Of a stretch of DNA of 64,000 nt, positions 8,419-48,565 are shown piece after piece (within the stretch, counting starts at the first letter, position 1; each line of letters starts with the position of its first letter). The translations under genes were made by a program, and so were the position numbers. Source of the stretch: a virus (Duplodnaviria; Caudoviricetes); the IMG/VR virus record IMGVR_UViG_3300032462_000002, positions 1-64,000 of that record; one strand, 5' to 3'. Under the pieces are notes generated by a model. The model saw only the letters and a program-made list of their open reading frames with translations. It had not been told where the DNA came from and did no database searches.

Positions 8419-8877
8419 ATGAAAAAGAACCAGAAGAGTGTTAGCGACCTTGGGGCCGCAGCATATTTGTTAATGCACGAAATTAAGGTCATTGGTCGTC
8501 GAGGCAAGGATATTTACTTCTTGCTTACAGAGGATCATACGTCTGAGAAGTTTGACCAGTTAACCCTTGATTATTTGTCAAGTGAATTTCACCGATTTGA
8601 TGCTTGCATCATGTCGCTGAAAAAGATCGGCGAATACAACTTTGAAACGAGGAATCATCGCTTCGTTACTGATTTGGGCGCTGCTGCTTATATTCTCATG
8701 CACAAATACAAGGTTGTAGGTAAAAAGGGCAAAGCAATCTACTTTGAATTAGACGATGAGATTTCGGACAAATTTGATGAAGTTGCTCTGGACTACATCT
8801 CCAGCGATTATCACCGATTCGATTCTTGCCTAATGTCCCTGAAAAAGATTGGGGAATACGTTAGCGATCATAACTAA
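8419..8877 (+). CDS. protein with two tandem copies of a ~70-aa domain (DUF5659-like)
   Basis: DLGAAAY..MH..KV.G..IYF..HRFD.C.MSLKKIGEY occurs twice. Confidence 0.65.
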   Translation: MKKNQKSVSDLGAAAYLLMHEIKVIGRRGKDIYFLLTEDHTSEKFDQLTLDYLSSEFHRFDACIMSLKKIGEYNFETRNHRFVTDLGAAAYILMHKYKVVGKKGKAIYFELDDEISDKFDEVALDYISSDYHRFDSCLMSLKKIGEYVSDHN

Positions 8878-8911
8878 TCTCAGCAGAGATATATAAGGGC
8901 AAGGAGAAATC

Positions 8912-10825
8912 ATGCTGGGATTCAAAGAATATCGTAATAGGTTTACAGAAGCCACACCTGATGAGGGAGCGGTGCAGCCTGAAGACGTGCTAAAACACGA
9001 AAAGGCAGCAAGCATCCAAAATCAAGTCAATCAAATTGTTGACACTTGGGTTGCGGACTTGAAACGAACTCTCATAAACCCAATGACGCCTCTTGCAGAT
9101 CGTCGGGGTCTATGGGACCGTTTCAAGAATACCATGTCTAATGTGTGGCACGGACGTTACAACCAAACCAATCCGTATTTCTGGAAAAATAAACTTGGCG
9201 ATGACTTGGGAGCTACCCAGGAATCTTTCAATCCCAATAACCTTTCTTTGTCCGATTACAAATCTCTTCGAGACATCTGCGAATCCCTTGAAGAACAACT
9301 CAACGAAGATGTACCAGAGGGCGCTGAAAACCTTCGTTTGGTTCGTATGATTGATACGAAGGCAATGGAACTCAAGCAGAAACTCATGTCTATTGTCGGC
9401 GATGCTGGAGACTCTTCTAATGCCTCTGTGTTAACACCAGATGAGCCTTCAACATCGCCTTCAACATCGCCTTCAGCAGCCAATCCCGAAGATGGGGAAG
9501 TAGATTCCAAAGTCCCAGGTGGATTTTTGAGTTTAGTCAAAGTTGTAGAACAATGGGCAAAGTCCAAAAAAATGGATATGAAAGAAGCTCAAGATTTGAT
9601 CGACAGACTAACCAGCAAAAGAGATTCAATCAGACAAAAAGCCGCCGACGATTTCACAAAATACAACAATCAGTTCAATGGTGAATCAGACAAATCGACT
9701 CTTGGAACATCTGCATCACCGGATGCCACTGCATCCTCAGATGCTCCTGAATCTGACAAGGGAGCTTTGTTTACGCCGCCTTCTACTGGCAAACGATGGG
9801 AAGAACTCAATCCTGATGAGAAGTCCAAATGGGACATCTATGGCGGCGGTGCATCACATGGTTCTGGAACCAAAGTTGATGGTTGTTTGAATGACCACGG
9901 AATCTTTAAGATGCCTTGGATCATGAGAATTGGTGATCCACGCCGACAAATATTGGCGGATCAAAAAGAAGGCAAATTGCCAGATAGCAAAAAGTGCGGA
10001 AACAAGAAAGTTGGATCGCATTGGTTTGACTTCCTGCATCGTTTAGGACGTTGGGAATTGGATAGCGATCCCATCAAAGACGCAATGGGACTACAATCCA
10101 GAGTAGAAAAAGCAAAAGCAACAACAGAAGAAGCTCGTAGGAAGATGCCTCGCTCGACGGCACCTTCAGACGTTGATGCTGCTCGTGATGCGGCAATGGG
10201 AAGCGATCCAGCGGCTCCAGCGGCTCCAGCGGCTCCAGAAGCGGCTCCAGCGGCTCCAGCGGCTCCAGCGGCTCCAGAATCAATACCAACACCTACTCCA
10301 TCAATGAAAGATCGTGTTGGAAGTATTGGCGACGAAGTGCCAGAAGTAAAAAACAAGTTCACTGGAACTGGTTTAAGCGAACCAATGCACACTGGCGGTA
10401 GTGATGAACCAGAAAACACTCCACCTGATCTAAAGAGTAGAGTTGCTGGCATAGATGGCGCTGACGCTATTCCTAATCCAACTCCAAAAGAAGAACCAAA
10501 AGAAAAGCCTGTCAGACAAATGAAAAAAGAAATGGCGGCTCGCATTGAAGCATTGTCAGACGAAGACACAAAAGAACAATTGCTCAGAACATTGAAGAAA
10601 ATGAAAGATCGAACAGACCTTGCCCAACTTGAAAAAGAGTTGGGAATTCATGAATTAGCAAACATGGAAATAGAATGGACGGCAACAGATATGAAGAATT
10701 TCTACAAGCAACGTCTTCACGAAAGAAAAGGTGTGCCGCAACCTTTAGTGAACAACAAGAAGATTGAAATGCTTTCTTTCTCAGAAAGAACAAAGTATTT
10801 CAAAGAACAACTTCAAAAAAGGTAA
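8912..10825 (+). CDS. large low-complexity protein, putative internal head protein
   Basis: N-terminus MLGFKEYRNRFTE; AAP repeats at about 10207-10278; GGAG SD. Confidence 0.65.
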   Translation: MLGFKEYRNRFTEATPDEGAVQPEDVLKHEKAASIQNQVNQIVDTWVADLKRTLINPMTPLADRRGLWDRFKNTMSNVWHGRYNQTNPYFWKNKLGDDLGATQESFNPNNLSLSDYKSLRDICESLEEQLNEDVPEGAENLRLVRMIDTKAMELKQKLMSIVGDAGDSSNASVLTPDEPSTSPSTSPSAANPEDGEVDSKVPGGFLSLVKVVEQWAKSKKMDMKEAQDLIDRLTSKRDSIRQKAADDFTKYNNQFNGESDKSTLGTSASPDATASSDAPESDKGALFTPPSTGKRWEELNPDEKSKWDIYGGGASHGSGTKVDGCLNDHGIFKMPWIMRIGDPRRQILADQKEGKLPDSKKCGNKKVGSHWFDFLHRLGRWELDSDPIKDAMGLQSRVEKAKATTEEARRKMPRSTAPSDVDAARDAAMGSDPAAPAAPAAPEAAPAAPAAPAAPESIPTPTPSMKDRVGSIGDEVPEVKNKFTGTGLSEPMHTGGSDEPENTPPDLKSRVAGIDGADAIPNPTPKEEPKEKPVRQMKKEMAARIEALSDEDTKEQLLRTLKKMKDRTDLAQLEKELGIHELANMEIEWTATDMKNFYKQRLHERKGVPQPLVNNKKIEMLSFSERTKYFKEQLQKR

Positions 10826-10869
10826 TATGAAGTTATATTGGCAGCTTCAATTTGAAGACTAAAAAATAA

Positions 10870-11802
10870 TCAATTGCCGTGTCTAGTCTGAACCCAGCGA
10901 ACAGTACCACTTTCAGATCGCATAATGACGCTATGTGTTGTTGGTCCACGAGAGTTAACAGAAACTCCCTTCAATAGACTACCATCGGTAATGCCAGTGG
11001 CAGCGAAACAACAATGACTCCTCACCAAGTCATCGTGCGAGAAGGTATCGCCTTTTAGTCCCACATCTTTATCCCAAACTTGAGCCAAGAAGAAGCCTCG
11101 CAAACACTTTACGGCTGCTGCCGTTATCACAGCTTCAGGTGCGCCACCTACGCCATATTGCATATCAATATTTCCATCAGCAGCAGAAATCGCACCAGAG
11201 ATGTCGCAGTCTTGTATCAACTTAATTCTGACTCCCAATTCTCTCATCTGGGCAATGTATTCTTCGTGACGAGGGCGATTGAGAATACAAACCATCAATT
11301 TGTCCACAGGTTTATTTAAGACTTCAGCAACTTGCTTGCACAATTCAGACAATGGGGTGCTGAGATAAAGATTTGTTCTACGAGCCACATCCCCACTGAC
11401 TGCGAGCTTTAGCATGTAATGCTCATCTGTATCAAACATGGTTCCTTTGTCGGCCATAGCAATAACGCTCATGGCTTCTGGCCCTGATGTCACAGTAGGG
11501 GTTGTTCCATCAATAGGATCGAGAGCAATGTCTACTTCTTTTGTGAATAAAGTACGAAGAACAGTTCCACCAAGATGAAGCCAACCACATCCAACACGGT
11601 CGCCCTTAAACAACCCATAACTTTCATCTTTTTTGCCTTCACCAATCTGGACTGTTCCTGCAACGTCCATGCGGTCAAGTCTGTCACGCATTGCGTTGGT
11701 AGCAGCCAAATCAGCTTCGAGTTTCTTGCCACTGCCTACCCAGGCTGCGGCAGCAATTGCCGCAGCTTCAGTTACACGAATCAAGTCCATATTATTGCGC
11801 AT
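10870..11802 (-). CDS. glpX: class II fructose-1,6-bisphosphatase
   Basis: RVTEAAA, IGEG..DE, DPIDGT, RPRH, GGAPE, AATGITDG motifs. Confidence 0.9.
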   Translation of the reverse strand: MRNNMDLIRVTEAAAIAAAAWVGSGKKLEADLAATNAMRDRLDRMDVAGTVQIGEGKKDESYGLFKGDRVGCGWLHLGGTVLRTLFTKEVDIALDPIDGTTPTVTSGPEAMSVIAMADKGTMFDTDEHYMLKLAVSGDVARRTNLYLSTPLSELCKQVAEVLNKPVDKLMVCILNRPRHEEYIAQMRELGVRIKLIQDCDISGAISAADGNIDMQYGVGGAPEAVITAAAVKCLRGFFLAQVWDKDVGLKGDTFSHDDLVRSHCCFAATGITDGSLLKGVSVNSRGPTTHSVIMRSESGTVRWVQTRHGN

Positions 11803-36382: not shown

Positions 36383-36550
36383 TTTGATCCCCATTTTTAT
36401 TGTTCCCTGCATACCTATCTACTAGGTGACGAGGGATTTTACGAATTACGGTGTAAAATTTGAATCAGAGTTAATACATAACCTCATCACTAGCAGCAGA
36501 AGCAGTTGCCGATGACTGAATCCAACAACAGCACAGGGAGTCAATTGATT

Positions 36551-38455
36551 ATGAAAAGAAAACTAATCAGCTTCGATGCGTTTAAGAAAATCGAAGAAGC
36601 ATCACTTACAAACGCCCAGGAAGAGTTAATCGGGGCAGAAGAAGTGTTGGCAAAAACCTTGGGTGTAGATGACTTGAAGTTATTCACCTTCGGGGAATCC
36701 GACGTTACATACCAAGCACCGGACGGAAGTTTCGTACATGCCAGCTACAAGTTAGAAAAGGACCAATTGGTCCTTGAGAATCTTGAACAATTGGTTATTG
36801 AAGAGGAAAGCGAGAAGAAAAATGCCCGCCAAACCCTAGTCAATATGGTAGATTCGCTACTTGAGAACAACGAAGCAAAGGCAGGCCAGCAATTTGAGGC
36901 TTATCTTTCCATGCCGTTTGTTCGTAGAGAATTGCTAGTCAGCGAAGGGTTTAAGGTCACTGTTTCCAAGCCTACTGGCAGTAACTCACCGCTCAAAAAC
37001 AAAAAGCAGAGTCGTTCTTTGGTCGCAAAGCGTACTCGCTCCCGCAATAAGACCCTCTCCCGTATTTCCAAGAGCCAGAAAGAACAACTCGGTCGCAAGC
37101 GTACTTCCGCTTCTAAGCAACTAGGTGGTTCTAACAATCCACGTTGGCGTACATACGCTCGCAAAGTCAAGCCGAACACCATCAAAGAATGGTCGATGAT
37201 GTGCGAGAACGTCATGAGCTATTTGGACTACAAAGAATTTGGCCCTGTTATGTCTGAATCCATGATTCAGACAGACGACAGAGGTAACGTAACTGGTGTT
37301 GCAATGCAAACCATCCAGAAGCGTAATGAAGGCAAGATTTTGACCTTCAATTGGAAGACTATGGATCATGAGATCAAAGTTCTCCGTGGAAATGTCAAGA
37401 AGCTGTCAGAAGACCAGACCTTCATTAAGGCCATGACCGATCTGAAGCGATACAACAACATTTCTGACAACTCTTCACTCGAAGAAACACTAGAAGCTAT
37501 TGTCAGCCGTTGGCCAGATGTTCTTTACATCACCGAAGGCGAATTGGCAGAGCAAATTTCAACAGCGTTGGAGACAGCCAATGTCACCAACTATGACGAC
37601 AATATGTGTTCTTTCATGGCTGAAGCAATTCTTCGCACAGCACACAATGCTTTCACGGATCGTGTACGCAAAATCGGCTCCCTGGCTGGCAGCACAAACG
37701 ACCTGACTGCTGAGTGCAAGACCTGTGAGGATTCCTACAAAGAATTCAAGACTGTTGCTGACAAGTTCTACACCCAGCTAGACGAGTCTGACTCGGCTGA
37801 CCTGAGAGTATTTGCTGACTTGTTCAAGGCTCTCCACGAAGTCCACCGTGTTGCCGCCGAAACTGGTGATGAAGCAACCAAGGCTGAAGTTGAGAACTAC
37901 ATGCAGGAATGTGCTGCTGTTCTGAACCGTGAAACTCAAGTTGATCTAAGTCTTGCAGAGGCTATTGCCAATTATCTGCACGATCTAGTTGAAGCTAATG
38001 TTTCTGGTGCGGAAGCAACATGGAACGTTTCCAACAGTGATGTACATAGCACAATCAATGGCGATCACCCAAGAACATCTTGGAACGCCAAGCAAACTGA
38101 CGCAGTTCCTTCCAAGTATACCGGCGACTACGGCGACGAAGCCCCGGTATCTGACGGCAAGAGCTACAAGAATGGATTAGCAGATGAAATGCGAAATCGT
38201 TCGTGGAGCAACATTGGCGGTGCAGACACTTGGCCAGACATGAAGAACCCATATGTACCGAAGCCTTTCGGCGATTACAAGATGAAAGAAAAGTCGGCAG
38301 TTGATGATGGCGAAAGTGATTGGAGCCGTTGGCAGTCTGGCGACACATGGCCGAACTTGAAGAACCCGTATGTGCCTGACTCCCCTTGGGACAAGAGCAA
38401 ATACAAGATGAAGTCCGACAACCTAGTTGTCGATAAAGGCGAAACCAAGGTCTAA
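36551..38455 (+). CDS. large prohead core/internal protein
   Basis: Lies before the protease; C-terminal duplicated DTWP.(M/L)KNPYVP..YKMK. Confidence 0.65.
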   Translation: MKRKLISFDAFKKIEEASLTNAQEELIGAEEVLAKTLGVDDLKLFTFGESDVTYQAPDGSFVHASYKLEKDQLVLENLEQLVIEEESEKKNARQTLVNMVDSLLENNEAKAGQQFEAYLSMPFVRRELLVSEGFKVTVSKPTGSNSPLKNKKQSRSLVAKRTRSRNKTLSRISKSQKEQLGRKRTSASKQLGGSNNPRWRTYARKVKPNTIKEWSMMCENVMSYLDYKEFGPVMSESMIQTDDRGNVTGVAMQTIQKRNEGKILTFNWKTMDHEIKVLRGNVKKLSEDQTFIKAMTDLKRYNNISDNSSLEETLEAIVSRWPDVLYITEGELAEQISTALETANVTNYDDNMCSFMAEAILRTAHNAFTDRVRKIGSLAGSTNDLTAECKTCEDSYKEFKTVADKFYTQLDESDSADLRVFADLFKALHEVHRVAAETGDEATKAEVENYMQECAAVLNRETQVDLSLAEAIANYLHDLVEANVSGAEATWNVSNSDVHSTINGDHPRTSWNAKQTDAVPSKYTGDYGDEAPVSDGKSYKNGLADEMRNRSWSNIGGADTWPDMKNPYVPKPFGDYKMKEKSAVDDGESDWSRWQSGDTWPNLKNPYVPDSPWDKSKYKMKSDNLVVDKGETKV

Positions 38456-38476
38456 CACACAAAAAGGAGTGCGTCA

Positions 38477-39157
38477 ATGGATGAAAGATTAAGTCTATTC
38501 GTTGACTGCTGTGACAATGGCGGGTTTGTCTTGAATTTGAATGAGTCAGCTACCGACAAGGGGCTGACTAAGTTCAAAGGCAAGTTTCAAGAGGCCGAGG
38601 CAGTTAACAAAAACAAAAGAATTTACCCCTTTGGTGTTCTCGATGAGAACGTCAAGAAATTGGTTCCCATCGTAGAAGCCCGTGGGCTGGTGGGAGAATT
38701 AGATCACCCGACAGATTCGATCATTCACTTTGAGAAATGTTCTCACGTCATCACTAAGTTGTGGTGGGAGGGAAACAATCTTATGGGTGAAGGAGAAATT
38801 CTGAATACACCGCACGGCAGAATACTGCGAAGTCTTTTGTCAGACGGGGTGAGAGTTGGTATTAGCAGCCGGGGCGTTGGCAACGGTCGCAGTGATGAGA
38901 ATGGCATTCTAGTTATTGGCGAAAGCTACAAACTGATTACCTTCGATGCTGTTGCTGATCCAAGCACCTACAACGCCTTTCAGGAGAAAGTCGTTGGAAA
39001 GAAAGAGAGTTATACACCAATCCCAAGTGATATTCACAAAAATGTGGCGAAAAATGAAGACAGCCGCATACATAAAGTAAATAAAGAAGCACTTATTGCT
39101 TGCTTGGGCGGTATCATTGAACAACAAACTAGCAATATCAAAGCGAGGTTAGGCTAA
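38477..39157 (+). CDS. prohead protease (T4 gp21-like)
   Basis: NKNKRIY, GELDHP, GISSRG.G, FDAVADPS. Confidence 0.92.
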   Translation: MDERLSLFVDCCDNGGFVLNLNESATDKGLTKFKGKFQEAEAVNKNKRIYPFGVLDENVKKLVPIVEARGLVGELDHPTDSIIHFEKCSHVITKLWWEGNNLMGEGEILNTPHGRILRSLLSDGVRVGISSRGVGNGRSDENGILVIGESYKLITFDAVADPSTYNAFQEKVVGKKESYTPIPSDIHKNVAKNEDSRIHKVNKEALIACLGGIIEQQTSNIKARLG

Positions 39158-40053
39158 TGGATAAGATTACAGAAGCACTAAAAAAGCTCTTACCCGAATC
39201 TGAGATTAACGAAGTCGCAGCCGCCGTCAAGGACATGCTAGAGCAGGCTAAGGTAAATCTCGAAACTGAGTACAATCAGAAACTTGAAGAAGCCTATGCC
39301 GAGCTTACTAGCGAGTTGGCGAATGCTGAAAAGACAGCAGAGAAAGGCTACGAAGAAGCATATGCCATTATTGGCGATCTTCGTAACCGTCTTGAACTTC
39401 AAGGCGAAGAGTACAAGTCAGCACTTGAGGAAGGATATGAAGAAGCATATCAGATGCTCAAGGGCGAACGAGACAAGAATCAGCAGCTAGAAGTCGAGAT
39501 GTACGAAGAGTACGACAAGAAACTGTCTGAGATGAAGGAATACATTGTCGATAAGGTTGACCAGTTCTTGCAATTCAAGGGCCAGGAAATCTACGAACAA
39601 GCCAAGCGGGACGTATTGAACGATCCTCGTATGGCCGAACACAAGGTTACTCTGGACAAGATCATTGATCTGACCAGCAACTACTTGTCAGATGATGATT
39701 TCGCATCAGTATCTTCCACAAAGTTGGAAGAAGTCAACAAGAGTGTTGAAGAGATGAAGGGACAGCTTCGCATTATGGAAGCTAGAAACATTCGTCTATC
39801 TACAGACAACACCAAATTGAACGAAGCCGTGCGTCAGTCTCAGGAACTCATTACAGAAAGCCGTAAGGCCATCAAGTCTGTAAAGAAGTCCGAGGTTGTT
39901 AACGAGCAGAAAGAAAGAACACAGAAAGTAACGAATGTAACGGGGAGAGGTAAGACATCCGATGATGGTGTAGTGATTTCGGAATACGCTGCACCCACAA
40001 ACAATGACGTGGATCAACTGTTGATCCTGTCGGGTTTGAAACAAGCTCAATAA
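39157..40053 (+). CDS. prohead scaffold (T4 gp22-like)
   Basis: Acidic coiled coil between protease and capsid genes. Confidence 0.75.
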   Translation: MDKITEALKKLLPESEINEVAAAVKDMLEQAKVNLETEYNQKLEEAYAELTSELANAEKTAEKGYEEAYAIIGDLRNRLELQGEEYKSALEEGYEEAYQMLKGERDKNQQLEVEMYEEYDKKLSEMKEYIVDKVDQFLQFKGQEIYEQAKRDVLNDPRMAEHKVTLDKIIDLTSNYLSDDDFASVSSTKLEEVNKSVEEMKGQLRIMEARNIRLSTDNTKLNEAVRQSQELITESRKAIKSVKKSEVVNEQKERTQKVTNVTGRGKTSDDGVVISEYAAPTNNDVDQLLILSGLKQAQ

Positions 40054-40094
40054 GGCTAACTCCAGCAATAACATAACCAGAGGACAACTCTAAT

Positions 40095-41531
40095 ATGAAC
40101 GCAAATTCTCGATTTTTGAACGAAGCTAAGGAGCTAGAATCTCGTTGGGGCAAGACCGGACTCCTCGAAGGTATTCAGGACCGTTACGTTCGCTCTGCCA
40201 CAGCAGTTCTACTCGAAAACCAGAGACTCATGAATGAAGTCTCGACCGACACTGGCGACATCGCACAGTTCAAGCGCATCAGCATTCCGCTGGTACGTCG
40301 TATTTACCCACAGTTGATCGCCAACAAGATTGTTAGCGTTCAACCATTGCTAGGCCCAACAGGTCTGGTGTATTACCTACGCTTCCGTTACAGCAGCAAC
40401 AAGGGTGGAACCCGTGGTGCTTCTAACAACGGTGGTTTCCCAGGTGATGACGCCAACTCGTTGATGCAGACCGCTGACGGTACTGCCAACCTGGACATTT
40501 TCTACACCCACCAGTTCATTCAGAACGAAGTAACTTCGACTGATTCTGGTACTGACGCTTCTGCTGTATTCACTCCTTTGGAGCATACACCAGTTTTGGC
40601 CGGTACTGTAACTGGTACGATTTTTGATGGCAGCACTGCTGTTCAGACATTCATCGTATCGTCCGGTGGTAGCTTCACCTTCACTGACATTGGCGCTCCT
40701 AGCGTTAAGGTCACAGCAGGTAGCTTGAACAATAACACTGGCGAACTCGCCATGACCTGGAACTCGGCTCCTGGCGCTAACCACGCTGTCATCAGCTATG
40801 AGTACAACATGGAGTGCCAGCAAGACCTCCCAGAAATCAACCTCGTGATCGAGTCGGAAGAAATTGCCGCCAAGACCCGTAAGTTGAAGGCTGTTTGGTC
40901 ATACGAAGCACAGCAAGACCTCCGCAGCCAGCACAATCTGGATGCAGAAGCCGAACTGACCGCTGTATTGGCTCAGGAAATTAACCTGGAAATAGATCGT
41001 GAAGTTTTGACCGACCTGCGTAACAACGCTGGTACTGTCACAGCTTGGGACTTCAATACTGCTCTTGGTGAAACCATCAAGGAAAAGTATGAATCTCTGT
41101 ATGTTAAGGTTGTTGAAGTTTCTAACGTCATCCACCGTAAGACCCTCCGTGGTGGTGCTAACTGGCTCGTAACTAGCCCTGAAGTTGCCTCGATCTTCGA
41201 GACAGCAACAGCAGGCTTCGCACCAGCACCTAGCGAAACATTTACTAGCAGCCTGGGCATCCAGTATGTTGGTACAGTGAACAATAGGTGGCGTCTGTAC
41301 AAAGACCCTCTGTTCCCATCCAACCAGATTTTGATGGGTTACAAGGGCGATAGCTACATGGATAGCGGTTACTTCTACTGCCCATACGTTCCGCTGACAC
41401 AGACACCTGTGGTCCTCGACCCAGAATCGTTCTGTCCTCGTAAGGGAATTTTGACGAGATATGGAAAAAAATTATTGCGTGAGGGTGCTAAATTCTACGC
41501 ACGCATGTCGATTGCGAATTTCGTGATCTAG
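40095..41531 (+). CDS. major capsid protein (T4 gp23-like)
   Basis: LLENQ, VRR..P.LIA..VQP, AKTRKLKA.WS.EAQQDL, EINLEIDRE, YCPYVPL, TRYG. Confidence 0.95.
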   Translation: MNANSRFLNEAKELESRWGKTGLLEGIQDRYVRSATAVLLENQRLMNEVSTDTGDIAQFKRISIPLVRRIYPQLIANKIVSVQPLLGPTGLVYYLRFRYSSNKGGTRGASNNGGFPGDDANSLMQTADGTANLDIFYTHQFIQNEVTSTDSGTDASAVFTPLEHTPVLAGTVTGTIFDGSTAVQTFIVSSGGSFTFTDIGAPSVKVTAGSLNNNTGELAMTWNSAPGANHAVISYEYNMECQQDLPEINLVIESEEIAAKTRKLKAVWSYEAQQDLRSQHNLDAEAELTAVLAQEINLEIDREVLTDLRNNAGTVTAWDFNTALGETIKEKYESLYVKVVEVSNVIHRKTLRGGANWLVTSPEVASIFETATAGFAPAPSETFTSSLGIQYVGTVNNRWRLYKDPLFPSNQILMGYKGDSYMDSGYFYCPYVPLTQTPVVLDPESFCPRKGILTRYGKKLLREGAKFYARMSIANFVI

Positions 41532-41563: not shown

Positions 41564-41598
41564 AAGAAACCTACCGACACTATGTCGGTAGGTTTCTT
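41564..41598. terminator. bidirectional terminator
   Basis: aagaaacctaccgaca-cta-tgtcggtaggtttctt. Confidence 0.85.
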
Positions 41599-42775
41599 AT
41601 TGGTTTTTACAAACGTAGCTGCGAAGAAGTGCTTCTTTCGTGTCCACGTTTAGCGACTTGAGGTAAACTTCGTCCCACACCAGGAACACCCCGCCCTCAT
41701 CCCTCGCAAGTTCCTTGCCTCGATTTTCCTTCGCTATATTGATCTCGTCTGTCCTCTTAAAACCCGGCTTCACTTCGACAAAGTAAAGTTTTTCGTCACC
41801 AATGTATTTGACTAGAAAATCTAGCACATATCTATGGGTTTTTCCCAGGTAGACATAATCAATCCCGAACGGCTCGAAATCATACCACTCGACTGATTGA
41901 TTTTCGCTTAGGTGGATGTGAGCGATCAATTCCAGATGCGATCTGAAATAAGGGTTCGTTTTCCTGCATTTGCCTGCCGGATGAGAAATCCATCCTGTTA
42001 TGTGTCCTTGATTCCATCGTCCTCCAGCCCACTTTCCCGACGTAATTAAGTCGATCATCGTTTTGCTTTGCTTCTGATTCCACTCTTCTGGCCTTGTAAT
42101 GCCTTTTGCCCAAGGATTTGCGTAGCTTTCAGCGAGCCATGTTGTGCAGTTCTGGCGTAGATAATCTTTCATTTCTGGTAGTTGGTTGTAGTGTTCAACT
42201 CCATATTTCTCCAGAGTGGTGATTGCTCCTTTAACTCGGACTTCAGGCAAGCTCAAAGGATTATCTACTCCATACCGTTCTTGACAAGTTTGTCGCATTT
42301 TCTCCTGGATTTTTTCAGATTGAAGAGGAAAGTCTACGCCATATTTTTCTTGCATAGCTTCATTAAGTCGCCGTATGCCTTCATCGGTTTTCATGATATG
42401 GTCGGCCCCATATCGCTTCACAGAAGTTTCCCGTCGTTTGTTGACAATTTTCTGCGTAGATTCCTCAGTACCGAACATCTTTTCAACCCGTTCAGCGATC
42501 TTTTCCGGTGTATTGATCGGCATGGCAGTGCCATATTTTGCGATATTGGTTTTCTCAATTTTATCTCGAACCTCTTTGCGATTAGCGGGGTTATTCGCTG
42601 CCATTTGACATGAACGGCAAATATGCTTGCCGCCATGTGCATCAGCATTCTTTTGAGCAACGCTGTATATTGGCGTAGACTCCGTTCCGCACAATTTGAA
42701 CCCGCCGTTACAATCGTACTTGATCCGCACCCGTTGTCCAGGTAGTAGATTCGCAGGAATCTTTTCGATGTACAT
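41597..42775 (-). CDS. putative free-standing homing endonuclease (KYG repeats plus TnsA_N-like PD-(D/E)XK domain)
   Basis: Repeated (E/K)(K/R)YG(V/A)D blocks; FRSHLE..FEP..Y..RYVLDFLV..VEVKP. Confidence 0.7.
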   Translation of the reverse strand: MYIEKIPANLLPGQRVRIKYDCNGGFKLCGTESTPIYSVAQKNADAHGGKHICRSCQMAANNPANRKEVRDKIEKTNIAKYGTAMPINTPEKIAERVEKMFGTEESTQKIVNKRRETSVKRYGADHIMKTDEGIRRLNEAMQEKYGVDFPLQSEKIQEKMRQTCQERYGVDNPLSLPEVRVKGAITTLEKYGVEHYNQLPEMKDYLRQNCTTWLAESYANPWAKGITRPEEWNQKQSKTMIDLITSGKWAGGRWNQGHITGWISHPAGKCRKTNPYFRSHLELIAHIHLSENQSVEWYDFEPFGIDYVYLGKTHRYVLDFLVKYIGDEKLYFVEVKPGFKRTDEINIAKENRGKELARDEGGVFLVWDEVYLKSLNVDTKEALLRSYVCKNQ

Positions 42776-42874: not shown

Positions 42875-43039
42875 TCAGTTGGTTTTCTTAAACCAATCAG
42901 GACGCATTTTGCGAATCTCCGCATCAAACTCAGGATCATATCCTTGACTGTTGAATACAGCTTTTGAGAGCGGTCGTGGCTCGCCATTACGAGCCATTTC
43001 CATAAGTTGTTGCTTCTTCGCCTTTGCTTCGTCACTCAT
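42875..43039 (-). CDS. 54-aa single-repeat protein (absent from the ORF track)
   Basis: MSDEAKAKKQQLMEMARNGEPRPLSKAVFNSQGYDPEFDAEIRKMRPDWFKKTN. Confidence 0.65.
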   Translation of the reverse strand: MSDEAKAKKQQLMEMARNGEPRPLSKAVFNSQGYDPEFDAEIRKMRPDWFKKTN

Positions 43040-43104
43040 CGCTACATTATCCAAATCAGATAATTAAGTAACCACTACGCATCATACCAAAAGATTATTG
43101 AGTG

Positions 43105-44436
43105 TCAACTCCTGAACCAATCAGACCGCAGTTTTCGAATTTCTTTGTCGAAGTCTGGGTCGTAAGAACCACCTTGATTAGTATAATGAGTTAAAACCTT
43201 TCCTAATTCTCCCGTCTTTTGACTGGGTCTTAGTTCACCATTCTTTGCCATGTCCAGAAGTTGTTGTTTCTTCTGGTCAGCAATATCAGATGTTAATACA
43301 AACCAATCAGGTCTTAAATTTCTGATTTCCTTATCAAATTCTGGATTATAACAGCCATTTTTTAGACTTGTATAAGAAGACAACATGCCTCCTAATTCAT
43401 GTTTTTTATTATTTGGTCTTGGTTCACCATTTTTAGCCATTTCCAATAGTTGTTGTTTAGCAATATTAGATGTTGAGATAAACCAATCAGGTCTGAGATT
43501 GCGAATCTCTGCGGCAAATTTAGGATCGTAACATTTTGATACAGTACAAATGTAATTATTAAACACCGATCCCAATTTAGTTTTTCTCTTTGGTTTTGGC
43601 TCACAGTTTCTCGCCATTTCCAGAAGTTGTTGTTTCTTCTCGCTTGCAACATCGAACTGAGATATAAACCAATCAGGTCTAAGTTCACGGACTTCCTTGT
43701 CAAATTCTGGATTATAACAGCCATTTTTTGGATTAGTATAAGAAGACAACGTGCTTCCTAATTCATGTTTTTTATCATTTGGTCTTGGTTCACCGTTTCT
43801 CGCCATTTCCAGAAGTTGTTGTTTAGCAATATTAGATGTTGAGATAAACCAATCAGGTCTAAGCCTACGAATTTCTGCATTAAATTCAGGATCAGATCTC
43901 ATGTAATGATTAAACGCAATTCCTAATTCATGTTTTTTATCATTTGGTCTTGGTTCACCATTCTTTGCCATTTCCAGAAGTTGTTGTTTTTTATCGCTTG
44001 CAACATCGAACTGAGATATAAACCAATCAGGTCTGAGATTGCGAATCTCTGTGGAAAAATTAGAATCGTAACATGGGTTTTTTGGATTAGTATAAATTCT
44101 CAAAAAAATTCCCAAGTTATGCGTCCGTACTTTTGGTATTGGATGTTCTTTACGAGCCATTTCCAAAAGTCGCTGTTTCTTCTGTACGGAATTATCAAAC
44201 CAATCAGGTCTAAGTTCACGGATTTCTGCGTCAAACACATCATCATAACAGCCACCTTTAAGGCGTATATAGTTGCGAAAAACCGATCCCAATTTAGTTT
44301 TTTTCTTTGGTTTTGGCTCTCCGTTTCTCGCCATTTCCAGAAGTTGTTGTTTATTCTGGTCAGATTGAGTTAAGCAGAACTTCTCCCAGCCGTCAATTGA
44401 TTCTAAGAGTTGTAATTGCCATGTTTTGAGTGTCAT
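43105..44436 (-). CDS. repeat-array protein B (7 x ~60-aa HA-like repeats)
   Basis: KQQLLEMA..P..LG..Y..F..EIR.LRPDWF x7; ATGA overlap with A. Confidence 0.85.
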   Translation of the reverse strand: MTLKTWQLQLLESIDGWEKFCLTQSDQNKQQLLEMARNGEPKPKKKTKLGSVFRNYIRLKGGCYDDVFDAEIRELRPDWFDNSVQKKQRLLEMARKEHPIPKVRTHNLGIFLRIYTNPKNPCYDSNFSTEIRNLRPDWFISQFDVASDKKQQLLEMAKNGEPRPNDKKHELGIAFNHYMRSDPEFNAEIRRLRPDWFISTSNIAKQQLLEMARNGEPRPNDKKHELGSTLSSYTNPKNGCYNPEFDKEVRELRPDWFISQFDVASEKKQQLLEMARNCEPKPKRKTKLGSVFNNYICTVSKCYDPKFAAEIRNLRPDWFISTSNIAKQQLLEMAKNGEPRPNNKKHELGGMLSSYTSLKNGCYNPEFDKEIRNLRPDWFVLTSDIADQKKQQLLDMAKNGELRPSQKTGELGKVLTHYTNQGGSYDPDFDKEIRKLRSDWFRS

Positions 44437-45794
44437 TTTATTTTTCTGAACCAATCAGACCGCAGTTTTCGAATTTTTTTGTCGAAGTCTGGGTCGTAAG
44501 ATTTATGTTTTAGTCTTGTGTAACAACCCAAAACCGATCCCAGTTTATGTGTTTTTTGATTTGGTCTAGGCTCGCCGTTCCTTGCTATCTCCAGAAGTTG
44601 TTGTTTCTTCTGGTCAACAATATCAGATTGAGTTTTTTTATTTCTGAACCAATCAGGCATAAGTTCACGAATTTTTTTGTCGAAATCTGGATCGTAAGAA
44701 CTGTCTTTTGGTTTTGTGTAATAAACCAAAGCCGATGCCAATTTATGTGATTTCCTATTTGGTCTTGGTTTGCCACGACGTGCCATATCGATAAGTTGTT
44801 TTTTTTTATGATTTACGGCATAACGAAACCAGTCGGGTCTAAGGCTGCGAATTTCCTTATCAAAATTTTTGTCAAAGGTATTGCCTACGGTTGTATATTT
44901 GCTTAAACAACTACCAATGTGTTCTGAAATTTTTGGTCTTAGTTTTCCTCGTCGTGCCATCTCTAAGAGTTGTTTCTTCTTTTGGTTGGCACGCTCAGAT
45001 AGAGACACAAACCAATCAGACCGCAGTTTTCGAATTTCTTTGTCGAAGTCTAGGTCGTAACAATTAGATTTTGTAGTGTATAAAGTCAATGAATGGCCCA
45101 ACTCATGTACTTTTTGAATAGGTCTTGGTTCACCACGACGTGCCATCTCCAAAAGTTGTTGTTTCTTCTGATCGGCAATATCAGATAAAGATGAAAACCA
45201 GTCAGGTACGATTTTGCGGATTACCTTGTCAAACTCTGGATCGTAGCAATCTCGCTTGTGTTCTGTGTAAATACGCAAGACATTTCCTAGACCATCTCGT
45301 TTAGGTTTTTTCTCTCCATTCCTTGCCATCTCCAAAAGTTGTTGTTTCTTCTGATCGGAAATATTAGATCGAGACACGAACCAATCAGGTCTGATCTTAC
45401 GAATTTTTTTATCAAAGTCTTGGTCGTAGCTGCCGCTTTTTTGACTCGTATAGCAAGTCAAACCAGATCCCAATTTATGTGATTTCTTATTTGGTCTTGG
45501 TTTGCCACTATATGCCATCTCTAAGAGTTGTTGTTTCCTTTTCTTGGCACACATGAACCAGCGGGGTATGCGTTCTCTGATTTGCTTGTTGAATTCTGAA
45601 TCATAAGAACTGCTGTTGTGTCTCGTGTATTCATTCAAAACATACCCCAGAGGATGCTTTCCCGGAATGGGTTTTGTCTCGCCATTCTTTGCCATCTCCA
45701 TAAGTTTCTGTTTCTTCTGACTTGATTTAGATAAACAGAACTCCTTCCAGCCACTTTTGGAATCCAAAAGTTGTATTTGCCAAATACTAAGCAT
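44433..45794 (-). CDS. repeat-array protein A (7 x ~60-aa HA-like repeats)
   Basis: Same repeat x7; ATG overlaps the helicase stop. Confidence 0.85.
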   Translation of the reverse strand: MLSIWQIQLLDSKSGWKEFCLSKSSQKKQKLMEMAKNGETKPIPGKHPLGYVLNEYTRHNSSSYDSEFNKQIRERIPRWFMCAKKRKQQLLEMAYSGKPRPNKKSHKLGSGLTCYTSQKSGSYDQDFDKKIRKIRPDWFVSRSNISDQKKQQLLEMARNGEKKPKRDGLGNVLRIYTEHKRDCYDPEFDKVIRKIVPDWFSSLSDIADQKKQQLLEMARRGEPRPIQKVHELGHSLTLYTTKSNCYDLDFDKEIRKLRSDWFVSLSERANQKKKQLLEMARRGKLRPKISEHIGSCLSKYTTVGNTFDKNFDKEIRSLRPDWFRYAVNHKKKQLIDMARRGKPRPNRKSHKLASALVYYTKPKDSSYDPDFDKKIRELMPDWFRNKKTQSDIVDQKKQQLLEIARNGEPRPNQKTHKLGSVLGCYTRLKHKSYDPDFDKKIRKLRSDWFRKIK

Positions 45795-47679
45795 TCTCTG
45801 TCTGCCTTTTATAATGTGCTCGTTGAACTGCCATAAATCGGTACAGCGAGCTATCTTTGTCAAGATTTTCAAAGCCAATTCGACTTGCTTCTTCAACTTT
45901 TTCTTTCCAATCTGTTCCTAAGAACTGTTGGAGTCTTTGAAGGTCATTTGTATTGGCTCGACCTTCAAATGGAGAATGCGGAGCTATATGAGTTCTGACG
46001 ACTACGTCCCAACCATGTTCACGCACAAAATCAACAATCATTCCATCAAGTCGTAGATCAGGGTTATTTGGATTTTGTCGTCTTAGGAGTTCTTTACGGA
46101 GTCGTTCTTTGAGGACTTCATAAGAGACATTTTCCAAGATATAATCATCAAATGATTCGATGATATCTTCGATTACTTCGTTGATGGCATCTGGAGTGCG
46201 AAGGTCTTCTGGGATTGCAAGTACAGCTTGGAGCATTTCTTCGATTACATCGTTACGTTTAGAGCCGTAAACATCTTCAAGGCTGACGTATTTAACTGGT
46301 TCAGTGTCTTCTTCGTCGTCATCAAATGGCAATGTGGGCATGAGGATGGGATAGAACATATCATCGAGCATTGACGAGACGATAACTGCGTTAAACATAT
46401 CCGAGATGTTTTGGCGGATTTTATCTGATGGTGAGTCCCATTGTGCGAAGTATTCGATGTAATTGACCATTTTGACATCTTGTTTGTCTTTATGGTCTCG
46501 AAGACTGCGGCCCAATTTTTGGATGGCCAAGTGTACCGAACGATCAAAACTAGCGTTGTGGATTCGTGAGCATGGAGGCCAATCTGTCCCTTCTCGACCT
46601 ATCATGCAGGTGACAGCAACTTGAAAGTCATGGTCATCTGACATGAGTCGATCTTTATCTCGTTTTTGTCGATCTGGTCGTACTAGATCGAGAACCAATT
46701 TTGGTCCATAGATTTGTTCTAGTTTTTCTACTAATGTCTTAACCCATTCGGTTTTATTGGTGGTCTTAAAAAAGCTATTGCCATCTGAGGGAACAATAAT
46801 GAGGGCAGGTTCGTTTGATTCTTCTTTGACAGAATCAATGATCTGATTCATGAGTTGAGTGCTATTTTCATAGCAAACATAATTTTGTCGTAATTCACGC
46901 AGTCCAAGGACATTCCAGTGTTCCATGAATGGCACTCTGAAAATCTCGAAATCACTAAGATAATCGGTGTCAATAATGGCTTGTTTATTGCCACGATAGA
47001 AGAGTGCGGTCATTACATGAAGAAATCCCTCTTGATCCAAGAGGTATTTGCAAAATTCACCCAATCTATTCATTTCATAATCATCTTCACTTACGCCTGA
47101 AACATGTTGTATTTCATCGATGCGAAACGATGTATTTTTGATCGCACGTTTCTTTTCAGAATTGCTCATATTCTGAAAGGCTTTTATGAAGGCGGCGTAT
47201 GTAGCAACGCAAGTGACTCCTCCGAGGACATCTTGTTTTCTGAAGGAATCTAGGCTTTTTTTAGTTCGTTTTTCCAGAAGAAATTTACGAACACTTTCGA
47301 CTGAGCCATCATTTTCTTCACAGCAATTGGTGGTTATTTCCCAATGATAAATTTTGCCATCTATATTCAACATGGGGTGTTTTTTCTCAGTGAACCCATA
47401 TCCGATATTGAGTTGTGGCACAATAAAGATTTGTTTTCGTTCATAGTCAGTTTGGATAATTTCACGAGCTGCGTCGAAGATTTGCATTAAACTTTTACCA
47501 CTCCCTGTTGGTGCAACGGTGAGGGTGCGAGTTTTGCCGTCAAAGCTCTTAAATCTACGTATTTGATAATCTCGTCCAGCATACCCAAGCTCTCTTGGTT
47601 GAGATTGTTTTATCGCAGGCAGTTTGGCTTGATGTGGTTTCCAATTTGGATCTCTAAAACTGAAATCGGCAGGCTTCAT
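45787..47679 (-). CDS. SF2 (DExH, ResIII-like) helicase/translocase
   Basis: APTGSGKS, IDEIQH, MTA, IGREGTDWP, QKLGRSLR. Confidence 0.85.
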   Translation of the reverse strand: MKPADFSFRDPNWKPHQAKLPAIKQSQPRELGYAGRDYQIRRFKSFDGKTRTLTVAPTGSGKSLMQIFDAAREIIQTDYERKQIFIVPQLNIGYGFTEKKHPMLNIDGKIYHWEITTNCCEENDGSVESVRKFLLEKRTKKSLDSFRKQDVLGGVTCVATYAAFIKAFQNMSNSEKKRAIKNTSFRIDEIQHVSGVSEDDYEMNRLGEFCKYLLDQEGFLHVMTALFYRGNKQAIIDTDYLSDFEIFRVPFMEHWNVLGLRELRQNYVCYENSTQLMNQIIDSVKEESNEPALIIVPSDGNSFFKTTNKTEWVKTLVEKLEQIYGPKLVLDLVRPDRQKRDKDRLMSDDHDFQVAVTCMIGREGTDWPPCSRIHNASFDRSVHLAIQKLGRSLRDHKDKQDVKMVNYIEYFAQWDSPSDKIRQNISDMFNAVIVSSMLDDMFYPILMPTLPFDDDEEDTEPVKYVSLEDVYGSKRNDVIEEMLQAVLAIPEDLRTPDAINEVIEDIIESFDDYILENVSYEVLKERLRKELLRRQNPNNPDLRLDGMIVDFVREHGWDVVVRTHIAPHSPFEGRANTNDLQRLQQFLGTDWKEKVEEASRIGFENLDKDSSLYRFMAVQRAHYKRQTENA

Positions 47680-47680
47680 A

Positions 47681-48316
47681 TCATGACCTTATAAAGAGGA
47701 AGGTTCCCATGTCGGTTCTGGACGCTTTGTAGCAATAAAGCTGTTCTGAAACAGTCCAATCTGTTGGATTTCTCAGATGTTTTACTACTGATTCGACCAA
47801 AATTTTTGGATCAAATCTTTTACTGGAATGCCCATCTGACAACATCAGATTTGCCGCCACAACAGTTTTTGGTGGGCAGAGATTCATGGTTTTAGCGAGA
47901 TATTTGTGGCAACTCGTTTTGAGCACAGTTTTTGTGTAATCGAAATACACAAGTGCTGGATTGAAAATCTCGAAATTATCTTCGATTGTTTCGAGCCAAT
48001 CTCCGCACAGCCAGTTGGCTTCGGGATGGTTTTTTTTATTGAATTCAATTACACCTTCACCTTTGAGGTCGTTGTCGATTCCAAAAAATTGATTTTTGGT
48101 GATAAATCCAGCTTGGACCAACTGAACGATTTCTGATCCTTCTGTATCGGGTTGTTTATTGCAGAAGGTCCAGTAAGATTTTTCCATTGGAATTGAATGG
48201 ATGCCGGTAATTTTTCTATAAGCATTGATCAATTCTTGTCTTGCCTTTATCTTGGCAGAGTTCTTATAATATTCTGGCTGTTCGGCGAAATGATGTTTGT
48301 CGAATGGATTTTGCAT
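47681..48316 (-). CDS. putative SAM-methyltransferase-fold protein
   Basis: FFGID, LCGDW and LVYFD resemble class I motifs II-IV; the glycine-rich motif I is degenerate. Confidence 0.45.
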   Translation of the reverse strand: MQNPFDKHHFAEQPEYYKNSAKIKARQELINAYRKITGIHSIPMEKSYWTFCNKQPDTEGSEIVQLVQAGFITKNQFFGIDNDLKGEGVIEFNKKNHPEANWLCGDWLETIEDNFEIFNPALVYFDYTKTVLKTSCHKYLAKTMNLCPPKTVVAANLMLSDGHSSKRFDPKILVESVVKHLRNPTDWTVSEQLYCYKASRTDMGTFLFIRS

Positions 48317-48376
48317 GTGTGATTTATAGCACAAATCACACAATTGTTCAAGGACAAAATAACTGATGAAGATTGA

Positions 48377-48565
48377 CACTGTCACAAGCCTTTAGATGGC
48401 AAAGCATCCGAGGATGTAATGAGCAATCAGATCAATGAAAATTTGTTTCCACCAAAGTTCTTAAACTGGCCTGTTCATTTGCATCACGATCATAAGACTG
48501 GCATGACAGTAGGTGCAGTTCATTCCCACTGCAACGCTGTATTATGGCAATATCATAATGAGTAA
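48377..48565 (+). pseudogene. 5'-truncated endonuclease VII-like gene
   Basis: In-frame TGA, then HCHKPLDG...PVHLHHDHKTGMTVGAVHSHCNAVLWQYHNE. Confidence 0.6.

Follow-up and report, generated by a model that had tools for sequence, protein, structure and literature searches.

A helicase-associated-like domain divided between a phage SF2 helicase and two downstream repeat arrays: a candidate docking handle

Why should a helicase gene stop two helices into a small three-helix domain, and why should a third helix stand at the start of each of the two genes behind it? The question is raised by a locus in the first 64 kb (the window, that is, the whole stretch of DNA analysed here) of the IMG/VR virus record IMGVR_UViG_3300032462_000002, which comprises 106,870 bases and apparently derives from a very large phage genome, as its CheckV completeness is only 22%. 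The locus codes for a superfamily 2 (SF2) helicase followed by two proteins composed of repeated units of ~59 amino acids (aa), arrays A and B. By sequence comparison, the helicase ends with helices 1 and 2 of a domain resembling the helicase-associated (HA) domain, and a copy of its helix 3, here called the helix-3 tag, lies at the N-terminus of both A and B. We propose that the tag probably docks onto the helicase in trans. The features of the locus are as follows:

45787..47679, minus strand: SF2 helicase, an open reading frame (ORF) of 630 aa
45790..45909, minus strand: helicase C-terminal half of the HA-like domain, with helix 1 at W591-I601 and helix 2 at S611-N629
45787..45794, minus strand: 8-nt stop/start overlap ATGCTTAG between the helicase stop TAG and the array A start ATG
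44433..45794, minus strand: array A, 453 aa, the helix-3 tag followed by seven units of ~59 aa
45735..45794, minus strand: helix-3 tag of array A, residues 1-20, MLSIWQIQLLDSKSGWKEF, placed by hhalign and an AlphaFold2 (AF2) model
44433..44436, minus strand: ATGA stop/start overlap between arrays A and B
43105..44436, minus strand: array B, 443 aa, 54% identical to A
44374..44436, minus strand: helix-3 tag of array B, residues 1-21, MTLKTWQLQLLESIDGWEKF, placed by a local HA hidden Markov model (HMM)

The original prediction, made from the sequence of the window, had described the helicase tail and the N-termini of both arrays, and all three were found as described. The helicase ends in ...DWKEKVEEASRIGFENLDKDSSLYRFMAVQRAHYKRQTENA before its stop codon, array A starts with the ATG at position 45794 (MLSIWQIQLLDSKSGWKEFCL...), and array B with the ATG at position 44436 (MTLKTWQLQLLESIDGWEKFCL...). 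The HA-like domain is not contained within one polypeptide: a stop codon follows helix 2, and helix 3 opens the next gene, while nothing upstream of array B in cis is able to supply the other half of the domain. AF2 models place helices at residues 591-601 and 611-629 of the helicase, and at residues 4-12 and 16-19 in the tag of array A, the latter with a predicted local distance difference test (pLDDT) score of 80-86.

SF2 helicases with C-terminal three-helix HA repeats (PF03457) are common, and the role of these repeats has barely been studied. The nuclear magnetic resonance (NMR) structure of an HA domain from Bacteroides vulgatus is available in the Protein Data Bank (PDB entry 2KTA), and the domain is said, in the title of a 2013 paper by Mills and colleagues, to bind DNA. 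As a canonical reference, we used 19 HA units cut from six helicase relatives in which Pfam HA scores above its cut-off. Aligned to this reference with hhalign, 15 helicase C-termini matched HA columns 7-42 of 62 (probability 90.8%, E = 1.2e-6), and 30 array N-termini matched columns 46-61 (probability 91.3%, E = 9.5e-7). The observed scores of 32.7 and 27.8 lay above those of all 100 column shuffles of the respective query (maxima of 16.2 and 12.6), and reversed alignments, used as a control, yielded noise-level scores. When the last 60 aa of the helicase were joined computationally to array residues 2-30 and scored with a local HMM of the 19 HA units, a single match extended over HMM positions 7-59, with 19.9 bits for A and 20.2 bits for B. 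Scored alone with the same HMM, the helicase tail yielded 13.4 bits (positions 7-42), and the N-termini of A and B yielded 4.5 bits and 7.7 bits (for B, at positions 46-59), the score of the join being approximately the sum of its halves. The canonical HA and the split domain have in common the conserved pattern W..., LYxW..QR..Y, L..QI..LE..GW. The claim that the two pieces, once joined, read as one HA domain was thus borne out by the complementary columns, the shuffles and the joined scores. Two other assignments were rejected: the split domain is not another array unit, as an HMM of 59 array units scores at most 2.4 bits on the tail, the tag and the join, and the array units are not diverged HA, the hhalign probability of units versus HA being 0.3%. 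The HA NMR entry was not recovered when the PDB was searched with the sequence of a canonical HA helicase.

The helicase, as judged from its sequence and model, has the features of an SF2 enzyme, with two predicted RecA-like motor domains and with Walker A and DExH motifs; residues G61, K62, D188 and E189 are invariant in 48 homologues. It is recognised by Pfam ResIII (27.1 bits, above the 22.5 cut-off) and by PHROG phrog_16, labelled 'DNA helicase' (E = 1.7e-13), with Pfam DEAD and Helicase_C under their cut-offs (17.4 versus 23.5 bits for Helicase_C). Its AF2 model has a mean pLDDT of 84.3, and a Foldseek search with the model against the PDB yields generic SF2 helicases alone (best E = 3.5e-11). 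In a PDB profile search, T4 UvsW (2oca) was matched at E = 1.8e-7 over query positions 31-110 only, and XPB/Rad25 gave a better match (E = 6.9e-11). Relatives number 656 at E<=1e-3, and the phage GenBank collection contains only two weak helicase relatives and no array relatives. All six distant helicase relatives that were tested for HA (P0244, P0246, P0256, P0264, P0269 and P0271; P numbers denote proteins, and L numbers loci) have Pfam HA above cut-off (38.7-107.8 bits) directly after the core. The half-domain of the window helicase, at residues 591-629 of 630, also directly follows the core, and occupies the same place as the first HA unit in these six proteins. Two paralogous helicases of this family are found ~43 kb apart on one 572-kb huge-phage contig (L017 and L018), one of them fused to 8 array units (1091 aa) and the other plain (640 aa).

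Arrays A and B each contain seven three-helix units of ~59 aa, which in the AF2 model of A (mean pLDDT 93.5) appear as three helices plus a short fourth per unit. Both proteins are basic, with an isoelectric point (pI) of 10.0 for A (104 Lys and Arg versus 55 Asp and Glu residues) and 9.25 for B. Array A has 204 relatives at E<=1e-3, on contigs of up to 618 kb. Pfam and PHROGs gave only scattered sub-threshold matches to the units. The A model was also searched for a resemblance to alpha-solenoid repeat families such as HEAT, ARM and PUF: Foldseek comparison with the PDB yielded no match at E<=0.001, the best E being 0.031, for a query which, at 453 residues, exceeds the size of a reliable single-domain match, and a wide VIA-align search gave a best Z of 4.6 and nothing at Z>=5, with the HA NMR entry 2KTA at Z 4.0, within noise.

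Is the boundary between helicase and array A real? Each array was predicted to have its own ATG overlapping the upstream stop, and this is what the window contains, in the form of the 8-nt ATGCTTAG for A and ATGA for B; such overlaps, read from the DNA, suggest that A and B are translationally coupled. The existence of fused helicase-array homologues, described below, lends some plausibility to the idea that a sequencing or assembly indel has artificially split one helicase-array gene. However, contigs from four runs in four studies span positions 45787-45794 with no gaps; two of them, X5 and X6, carry single-nucleotide polymorphisms and therefore represent independent strains, and the two identical contigs may be the source of this record. 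Moreover, the split between helix 2 and helix 3 recurs in five other lineages with helicases 27-67% identical to that of the window (L026/L027, 67%; L004/L007, 56%; L005 and L006, 51%; L015, 27%). A locus search with a smaller alignment yielded 18 loci and gave a substantial helicase match in three (L026, L027 and the fragment L028), of which L026 and L027 were usable, and a degenerate DNA pattern search added no contigs beyond those already in the set. Since the spanning contigs are ungapped and the split is conserved in five lineages, the indel artefact, which the original prediction had named as part of the outcome that would speak against it, is excluded, and we give it a vanishingly small probability.

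A second way of removing the boundary would be a programmed event at the overlap, either a +1 ribosomal frameshift or a bypass of the stop codon, which would yield a fused helicase-array A in a fraction of translation events and restore the domain in cis. In the window and in L004, L006, L026 and L015, the array is indeed in the +1 frame with respect to the helicase; in the window, no stop codon interrupts the A frame over the 34 codons (102 nt) before its ATG, and read-through would produce a continuous domain. However, the junctions have no slippery site in common (GAG AAT GCT TAG, CAC AGT GCT TAA, ACA AAT GCT TAA), as the codons before the motif vary between lineages. What the helicase-to-array junctions of L004, L006 and L026 do have is an equivalent ATGCTTAA overlap (in L004 as GTGCTTAA), and this motif consists of Met-Leu-Lys codons with TAA in the upstream frame; it is found also at array-to-array junctions and, in L005, after an unrelated gene in a different frame. 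In L015, stop and start do not overlap at all (TAATATG), and the array frame in L004, L006 and L026 is open for just ~9-12 codons upstream. Nor does the gene order fit: all three tagged arrays of L005 lie upstream of the helicase, and array B, like the second and third arrays elsewhere, is preceded by a complete array, from which no half-domain could be gained. Several starts are preceded by Shine-Dalgarno-like purine runs, as seen by eye, which again speaks against frameshifting. Of the frameshift alternative as initially put forward, the open frame of about 100 nt upstream of A has therefore stood, but fusion by frameshift has not, given the absence of a conserved slip site and the unsuitable gene orders, and we consider it highly improbable.

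If helicase and arrays are separate products, what is the tag? Inspection of the N-termini of 120 listed array homologues revealed the helix-3 tag alone in 31, helices 2 and 3 in cis in 9, an unrelated second type in 26, and other sequences in 23. The closest relative of the window, L026, is syntenic at 8874-10503 (plus strand) with window positions 43105-45794. In the slot between its capsid and endonuclease genes and its helicase are two proteins that open with the helix-3 tag (MLNKRQLQKLES...DWH.F) and continue in an unrelated ~57-aa repeat (..PEEWV..AEQLA..NGGKLP...WL.KNGY..L....RK.PELFKHI). The latter does not correspond to any Pfam family, and helicases such as P0137 and P0261 carry it as a fusion in cis. 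In L005, the arrays upstream of the helicase have retained the tag. Because the tag is kept on arrays that do not adjoin the helicase in L005 and is carried by a different repeat family in L026, the view that the handle of the original prediction is separable is supported by these comparisons.

Not all array N-termini belong to this scheme. The second type (MLHK.., MLTEVKNNY.., MISSINTSY.., as in P0006, P0010 and P0013) was considered as a variant of HA or of the tag and rejected, having no similarity to the tag or, by hhalign, to HA. At L019:10213-10854, the array is of the second type and lies behind a helicase whose C-terminal region differs (...FNK.LPKGFEFF...), and the second N-terminal type and the L019-type helicase tail may constitute a second, independent connector pair. 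The N-terminal variant in P0076, P0078, P0089 and P0098 (e.g., ...ARSLYKNNKLSQDI....FW) appears by eye to comprise helix 3 and, before it, the last part of HA helix 2, a hint that not all lineages have the domain cut at the same point. The fourth array of L006 (9933-11037, plus strand) has its tag and first unit in 9933-10214 and its other five units in another frame, at 10162-11037, and looks like a frame-disrupted copy.

Natural fusions indicate what the two proteins have to do with each other. The 540-aa fragment P0226 contains helicase, helices 1, 2 and 3, and array units in one chain, and is colinear with the two genes of the window: its residues 16-384 align to helicase residues 244-620 (E = 1e-41) and its residues 400-530 to array A residues 8-139 (E = 2e-24), with 15 aa between the helicase and array parts, versus 17 aa in the window. 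In P0143 and P0138, the helicase ends in a whole HA-like domain in cis, and in P0137 such a domain is followed by the different repeat family. All nine array homologues picked for a longer N-terminus carry helices 2 and 3 in cis, matching Pfam HA positions 25-64 (E from 2.1e-7 to 0.056), with two of the nine above the Pfam cut-off. A search for fused homologues, as had been suggested, thus proved productive, since, in addition to P0226, at least 24 of the 27 longer proteins with array units proved to be fused to an SF2 helicase (20 with precomputed helicase Pfam domains, 3 matching this helicase, and 1 named as a helicase by its source). The other three are one pure array, one leucine-rich-repeat-like sequence with units, and one unassigned protein. 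On the strength of these fusions, the view that helicase and arrays work together is strongly supported at the level of sequence. Given this partnership and their charge, the arrays may bind nucleic acid.

We then consider whether the two halves of the domain could meet in trans. Complex prediction was run on helicase residues 460-630 (48-row alignment) and array A residues 1-85 (11-row alignment), and yielded ipSAE scores of 0.47, 0.50 and 0.50, versus 0.00 in all three controls, with a partner pLDDT of at least 77 and at least 90% of contacts agreeing between runs. In the benchmark, the counts of which hold just roughly with custom alignments, the pass mark was reached by 58 of 80 solved complexes and 2 of 110 mismatched pairs; at scores of 0.60 or less, 7 of the 80 solved complexes passed, and both passing mismatches were in that range. 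The basic charge of the arrays, as opposed to the acidic helicase (pI 5.46), was also counted in favour of docking. The gene boundary cuts the first HA-like domain between helix 2 and helix 3, and in the mechanism that we propose, the helix-3 tag would pack on the two-helix half carried by the helicase, completing the domain in trans. The completed domain would then tether one array at a time to the motor, and the arrays would act as alternative nucleic-acid-binding or targeting modules, which in relatives are attached covalently instead. In our judgment, such docking in trans is the best explanation and somewhat favoured by the evidence at hand, and A and B could exchange with each other on the same helicase.

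Several observations weigh against this interpretation, beginning with the domain assignment itself. Pfam HA, with a gathering score of 28.4 bits, finds no match in the helicase, A or B at E<=0.1, none at E<=10 in the 60-aa tail, in the 26-aa tag piece or in P0121, the product of +1 read-through, and none over the whole 106,870-base record at E<=1. As Pfam HA misses the window, the assignment relies on profile-profile and custom-HMM comparison. Tagless arrays also exist: 31 of the 120 listed homologues start within a unit and have no tag, although they are possibly partial, and one array in L005 and one in L006 are without it. Neither half-domain nor tag was found in any of the 27 longer array-bearing proteins, so an HA-like domain is not required for the arrays to function with a helicase. 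Already in the model of A by itself, the tag is predicted with confidence as helical, and it might therefore simply cap the array. Finally, the modelling check on the helicase tail and the A N-terminus, which the original prediction had recommended, gave support that was weak: the ipSAE of 0.50 versus 0.00 is in its favour, but the score falls in the 'weak support' band of the tool and no interface was returned.

The last four of these observations also speak for another reading, in which the tag is a relic of an old gene fission or simply caps the array at its N-terminus, with helicase and arrays working separately, or touching by other surfaces, and with no docking role for the split domain. 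Such an origin, however, does not readily explain why both the tag and the helicase half-domain have been kept across lineages with 27-67% helicase identity, why the tag is kept on paralogues without an upstream half-domain (B, and arrays in L004 and L005), or why it is present on two unrelated repeat families. It is also at odds with the distribution of the tag, which was detected by HMM (E<=1e-2) in five of six lineages with a half-domain helicase, and in the sixth, L015, when searched alone (E = 1.8e-5), as opposed to none of seven loci whose helicase is without the half-domain; it should be kept in mind that these counts are small, that the lineages are related to one another, and that this, too, limits the case for docking. 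Furthermore, the connector is present where the parts are separate polypeptides, with the exception of P0226, and absent where they are covalently joined, which fits a connector role. Overall, we consider a leftover or cap without a docking role unlikely, while giving it more weight than either the frameshift or the indel, and retain docking in trans as the preferred explanation.

The surroundings of the locus include the following features:

47681-48385, minus strand: conserved 234-aa gene, directly upstream of the helicase
42875..43054, minus strand: single-unit ORF of 59 aa with a TTG start, tagless and located 50 nt downstream of array B
41597-42775, minus strand: homing-endonuclease-like gene, between the capsid gene and the arrays
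40095-41531: putative major capsid gene, gp23-like, its resemblance to T4 gp23 having been read from sequence

The order on the minus strand is therefore the 234-aa gene, helicase, array A, array B, the 59-aa ORF and the homing-endonuclease-like gene. In a search of its own genome, array A matches the 59-aa ORF with E = 8.1e-11 and 62% identity, and this ORF may be either a remnant or a minimal single-unit protein. The homing-endonuclease-like gene matches Pfam DUF7487 (E = 2.5e-23) and a TnsA-like endonuclease N-terminal domain (E = 2.7e-7), and carries the PHROGs label 'homing endonuclease'; its homologues are located close to arrays in L004 and L026. The 234-aa protein has no Pfam or PHROG match. 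Homologues of its gene are found upstream of the helicase in L004, L005 and L006, and in L005 the arrays are inserted between this homologue and the helicase. On the plus strand, 36506-41531 is occupied by what appears to be a block of head genes, coding for proteins of 649 aa, 226 aa, 298 aa (coiled-coil-like) and 478 aa (the gp23-like putative major capsid protein).

How does this arrangement compare with known systems? It shares with HA-repeat helicases the helicase core family, the position of the HA-like domain directly after the core, and the conserved W/LYxW/QI pattern, but differs from them in that the domain is divided over two polypeptides, with the third helix duplicated on several genes, in that Pfam HA misses this copy, and in that the downstream units are not detectably HA-like. 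Metagenomic helicase-array fusions (P0124, P0141, P0149, P0226 and others), which their sources name 'hypothetical protein' or at most 'superfamily II helicase', share the helicase family and the ~59-aa units with the window, but as a single polypeptide and mostly without the HA-like connector. Split genes are familiar from T4-like phages, in which those for topoisomerase and ribonucleotide reductase subunits are adjacent genes derived from one ancestral protein, with products thought to reassemble. Those cuts, however, fall between larger domains, often with a mobile endonuclease, and leave one fixed partner, whereas in the window the cut is inside a three-helix domain of ~60 aa and the small fragment is common to several alternative partners.

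Another parallel might be sought in UvsW of T4-like phages, the region of which is described as 'divided into 2 ORFs'; UvsW.1, a small separate ORF after the SF2 helicase, was once taken for the UvsW C-terminus (PMC1524935; see also PMC7824862). The likeness consists of an SF2 helicase followed by a small separate ORF, but UvsW.1 is a whole small helical domain of ~76 aa encoded by a single gene, while the partners in the window are repeat proteins of 443-453 aa. In addition, the similarity of UvsW to the window helicase is confined to the N-terminal motor region. The locus thus differs from both HA-repeat helicases and UvsW/UvsW.1, in that the cut lies inside a small domain and the missing helix is reused on several partners. 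In a limited collection of literature on the HA domain and on huge phages, we found no split inside a ~60-aa helical bundle with a fragment reused as a tag.

It is tempting to go one step further and to regard the helix-3 tag as a portable split-domain docking tag, a natural case of fragment complementation in which cargoes from at least two unrelated repeat families compete for one incomplete helicase domain. We put this forward as a tentative possibility, somewhat short of an even chance. If true, a phage would be able to re-target one motor by cassette swap, and lineages could swap cargo through recombination at the conserved 5' end coding for the tag. Even if docking does not take place, the locus still illustrates clear gene fission and fusion dynamics in huge-phage helicases. 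If docking does take place, the two pieces would represent a small natural two-piece tag and a candidate tool for protein assembly; the function of the HA-like domain would be that of a protein-protein connector, and there would be a handle on the role of the widespread basic repeat arrays of huge phages.

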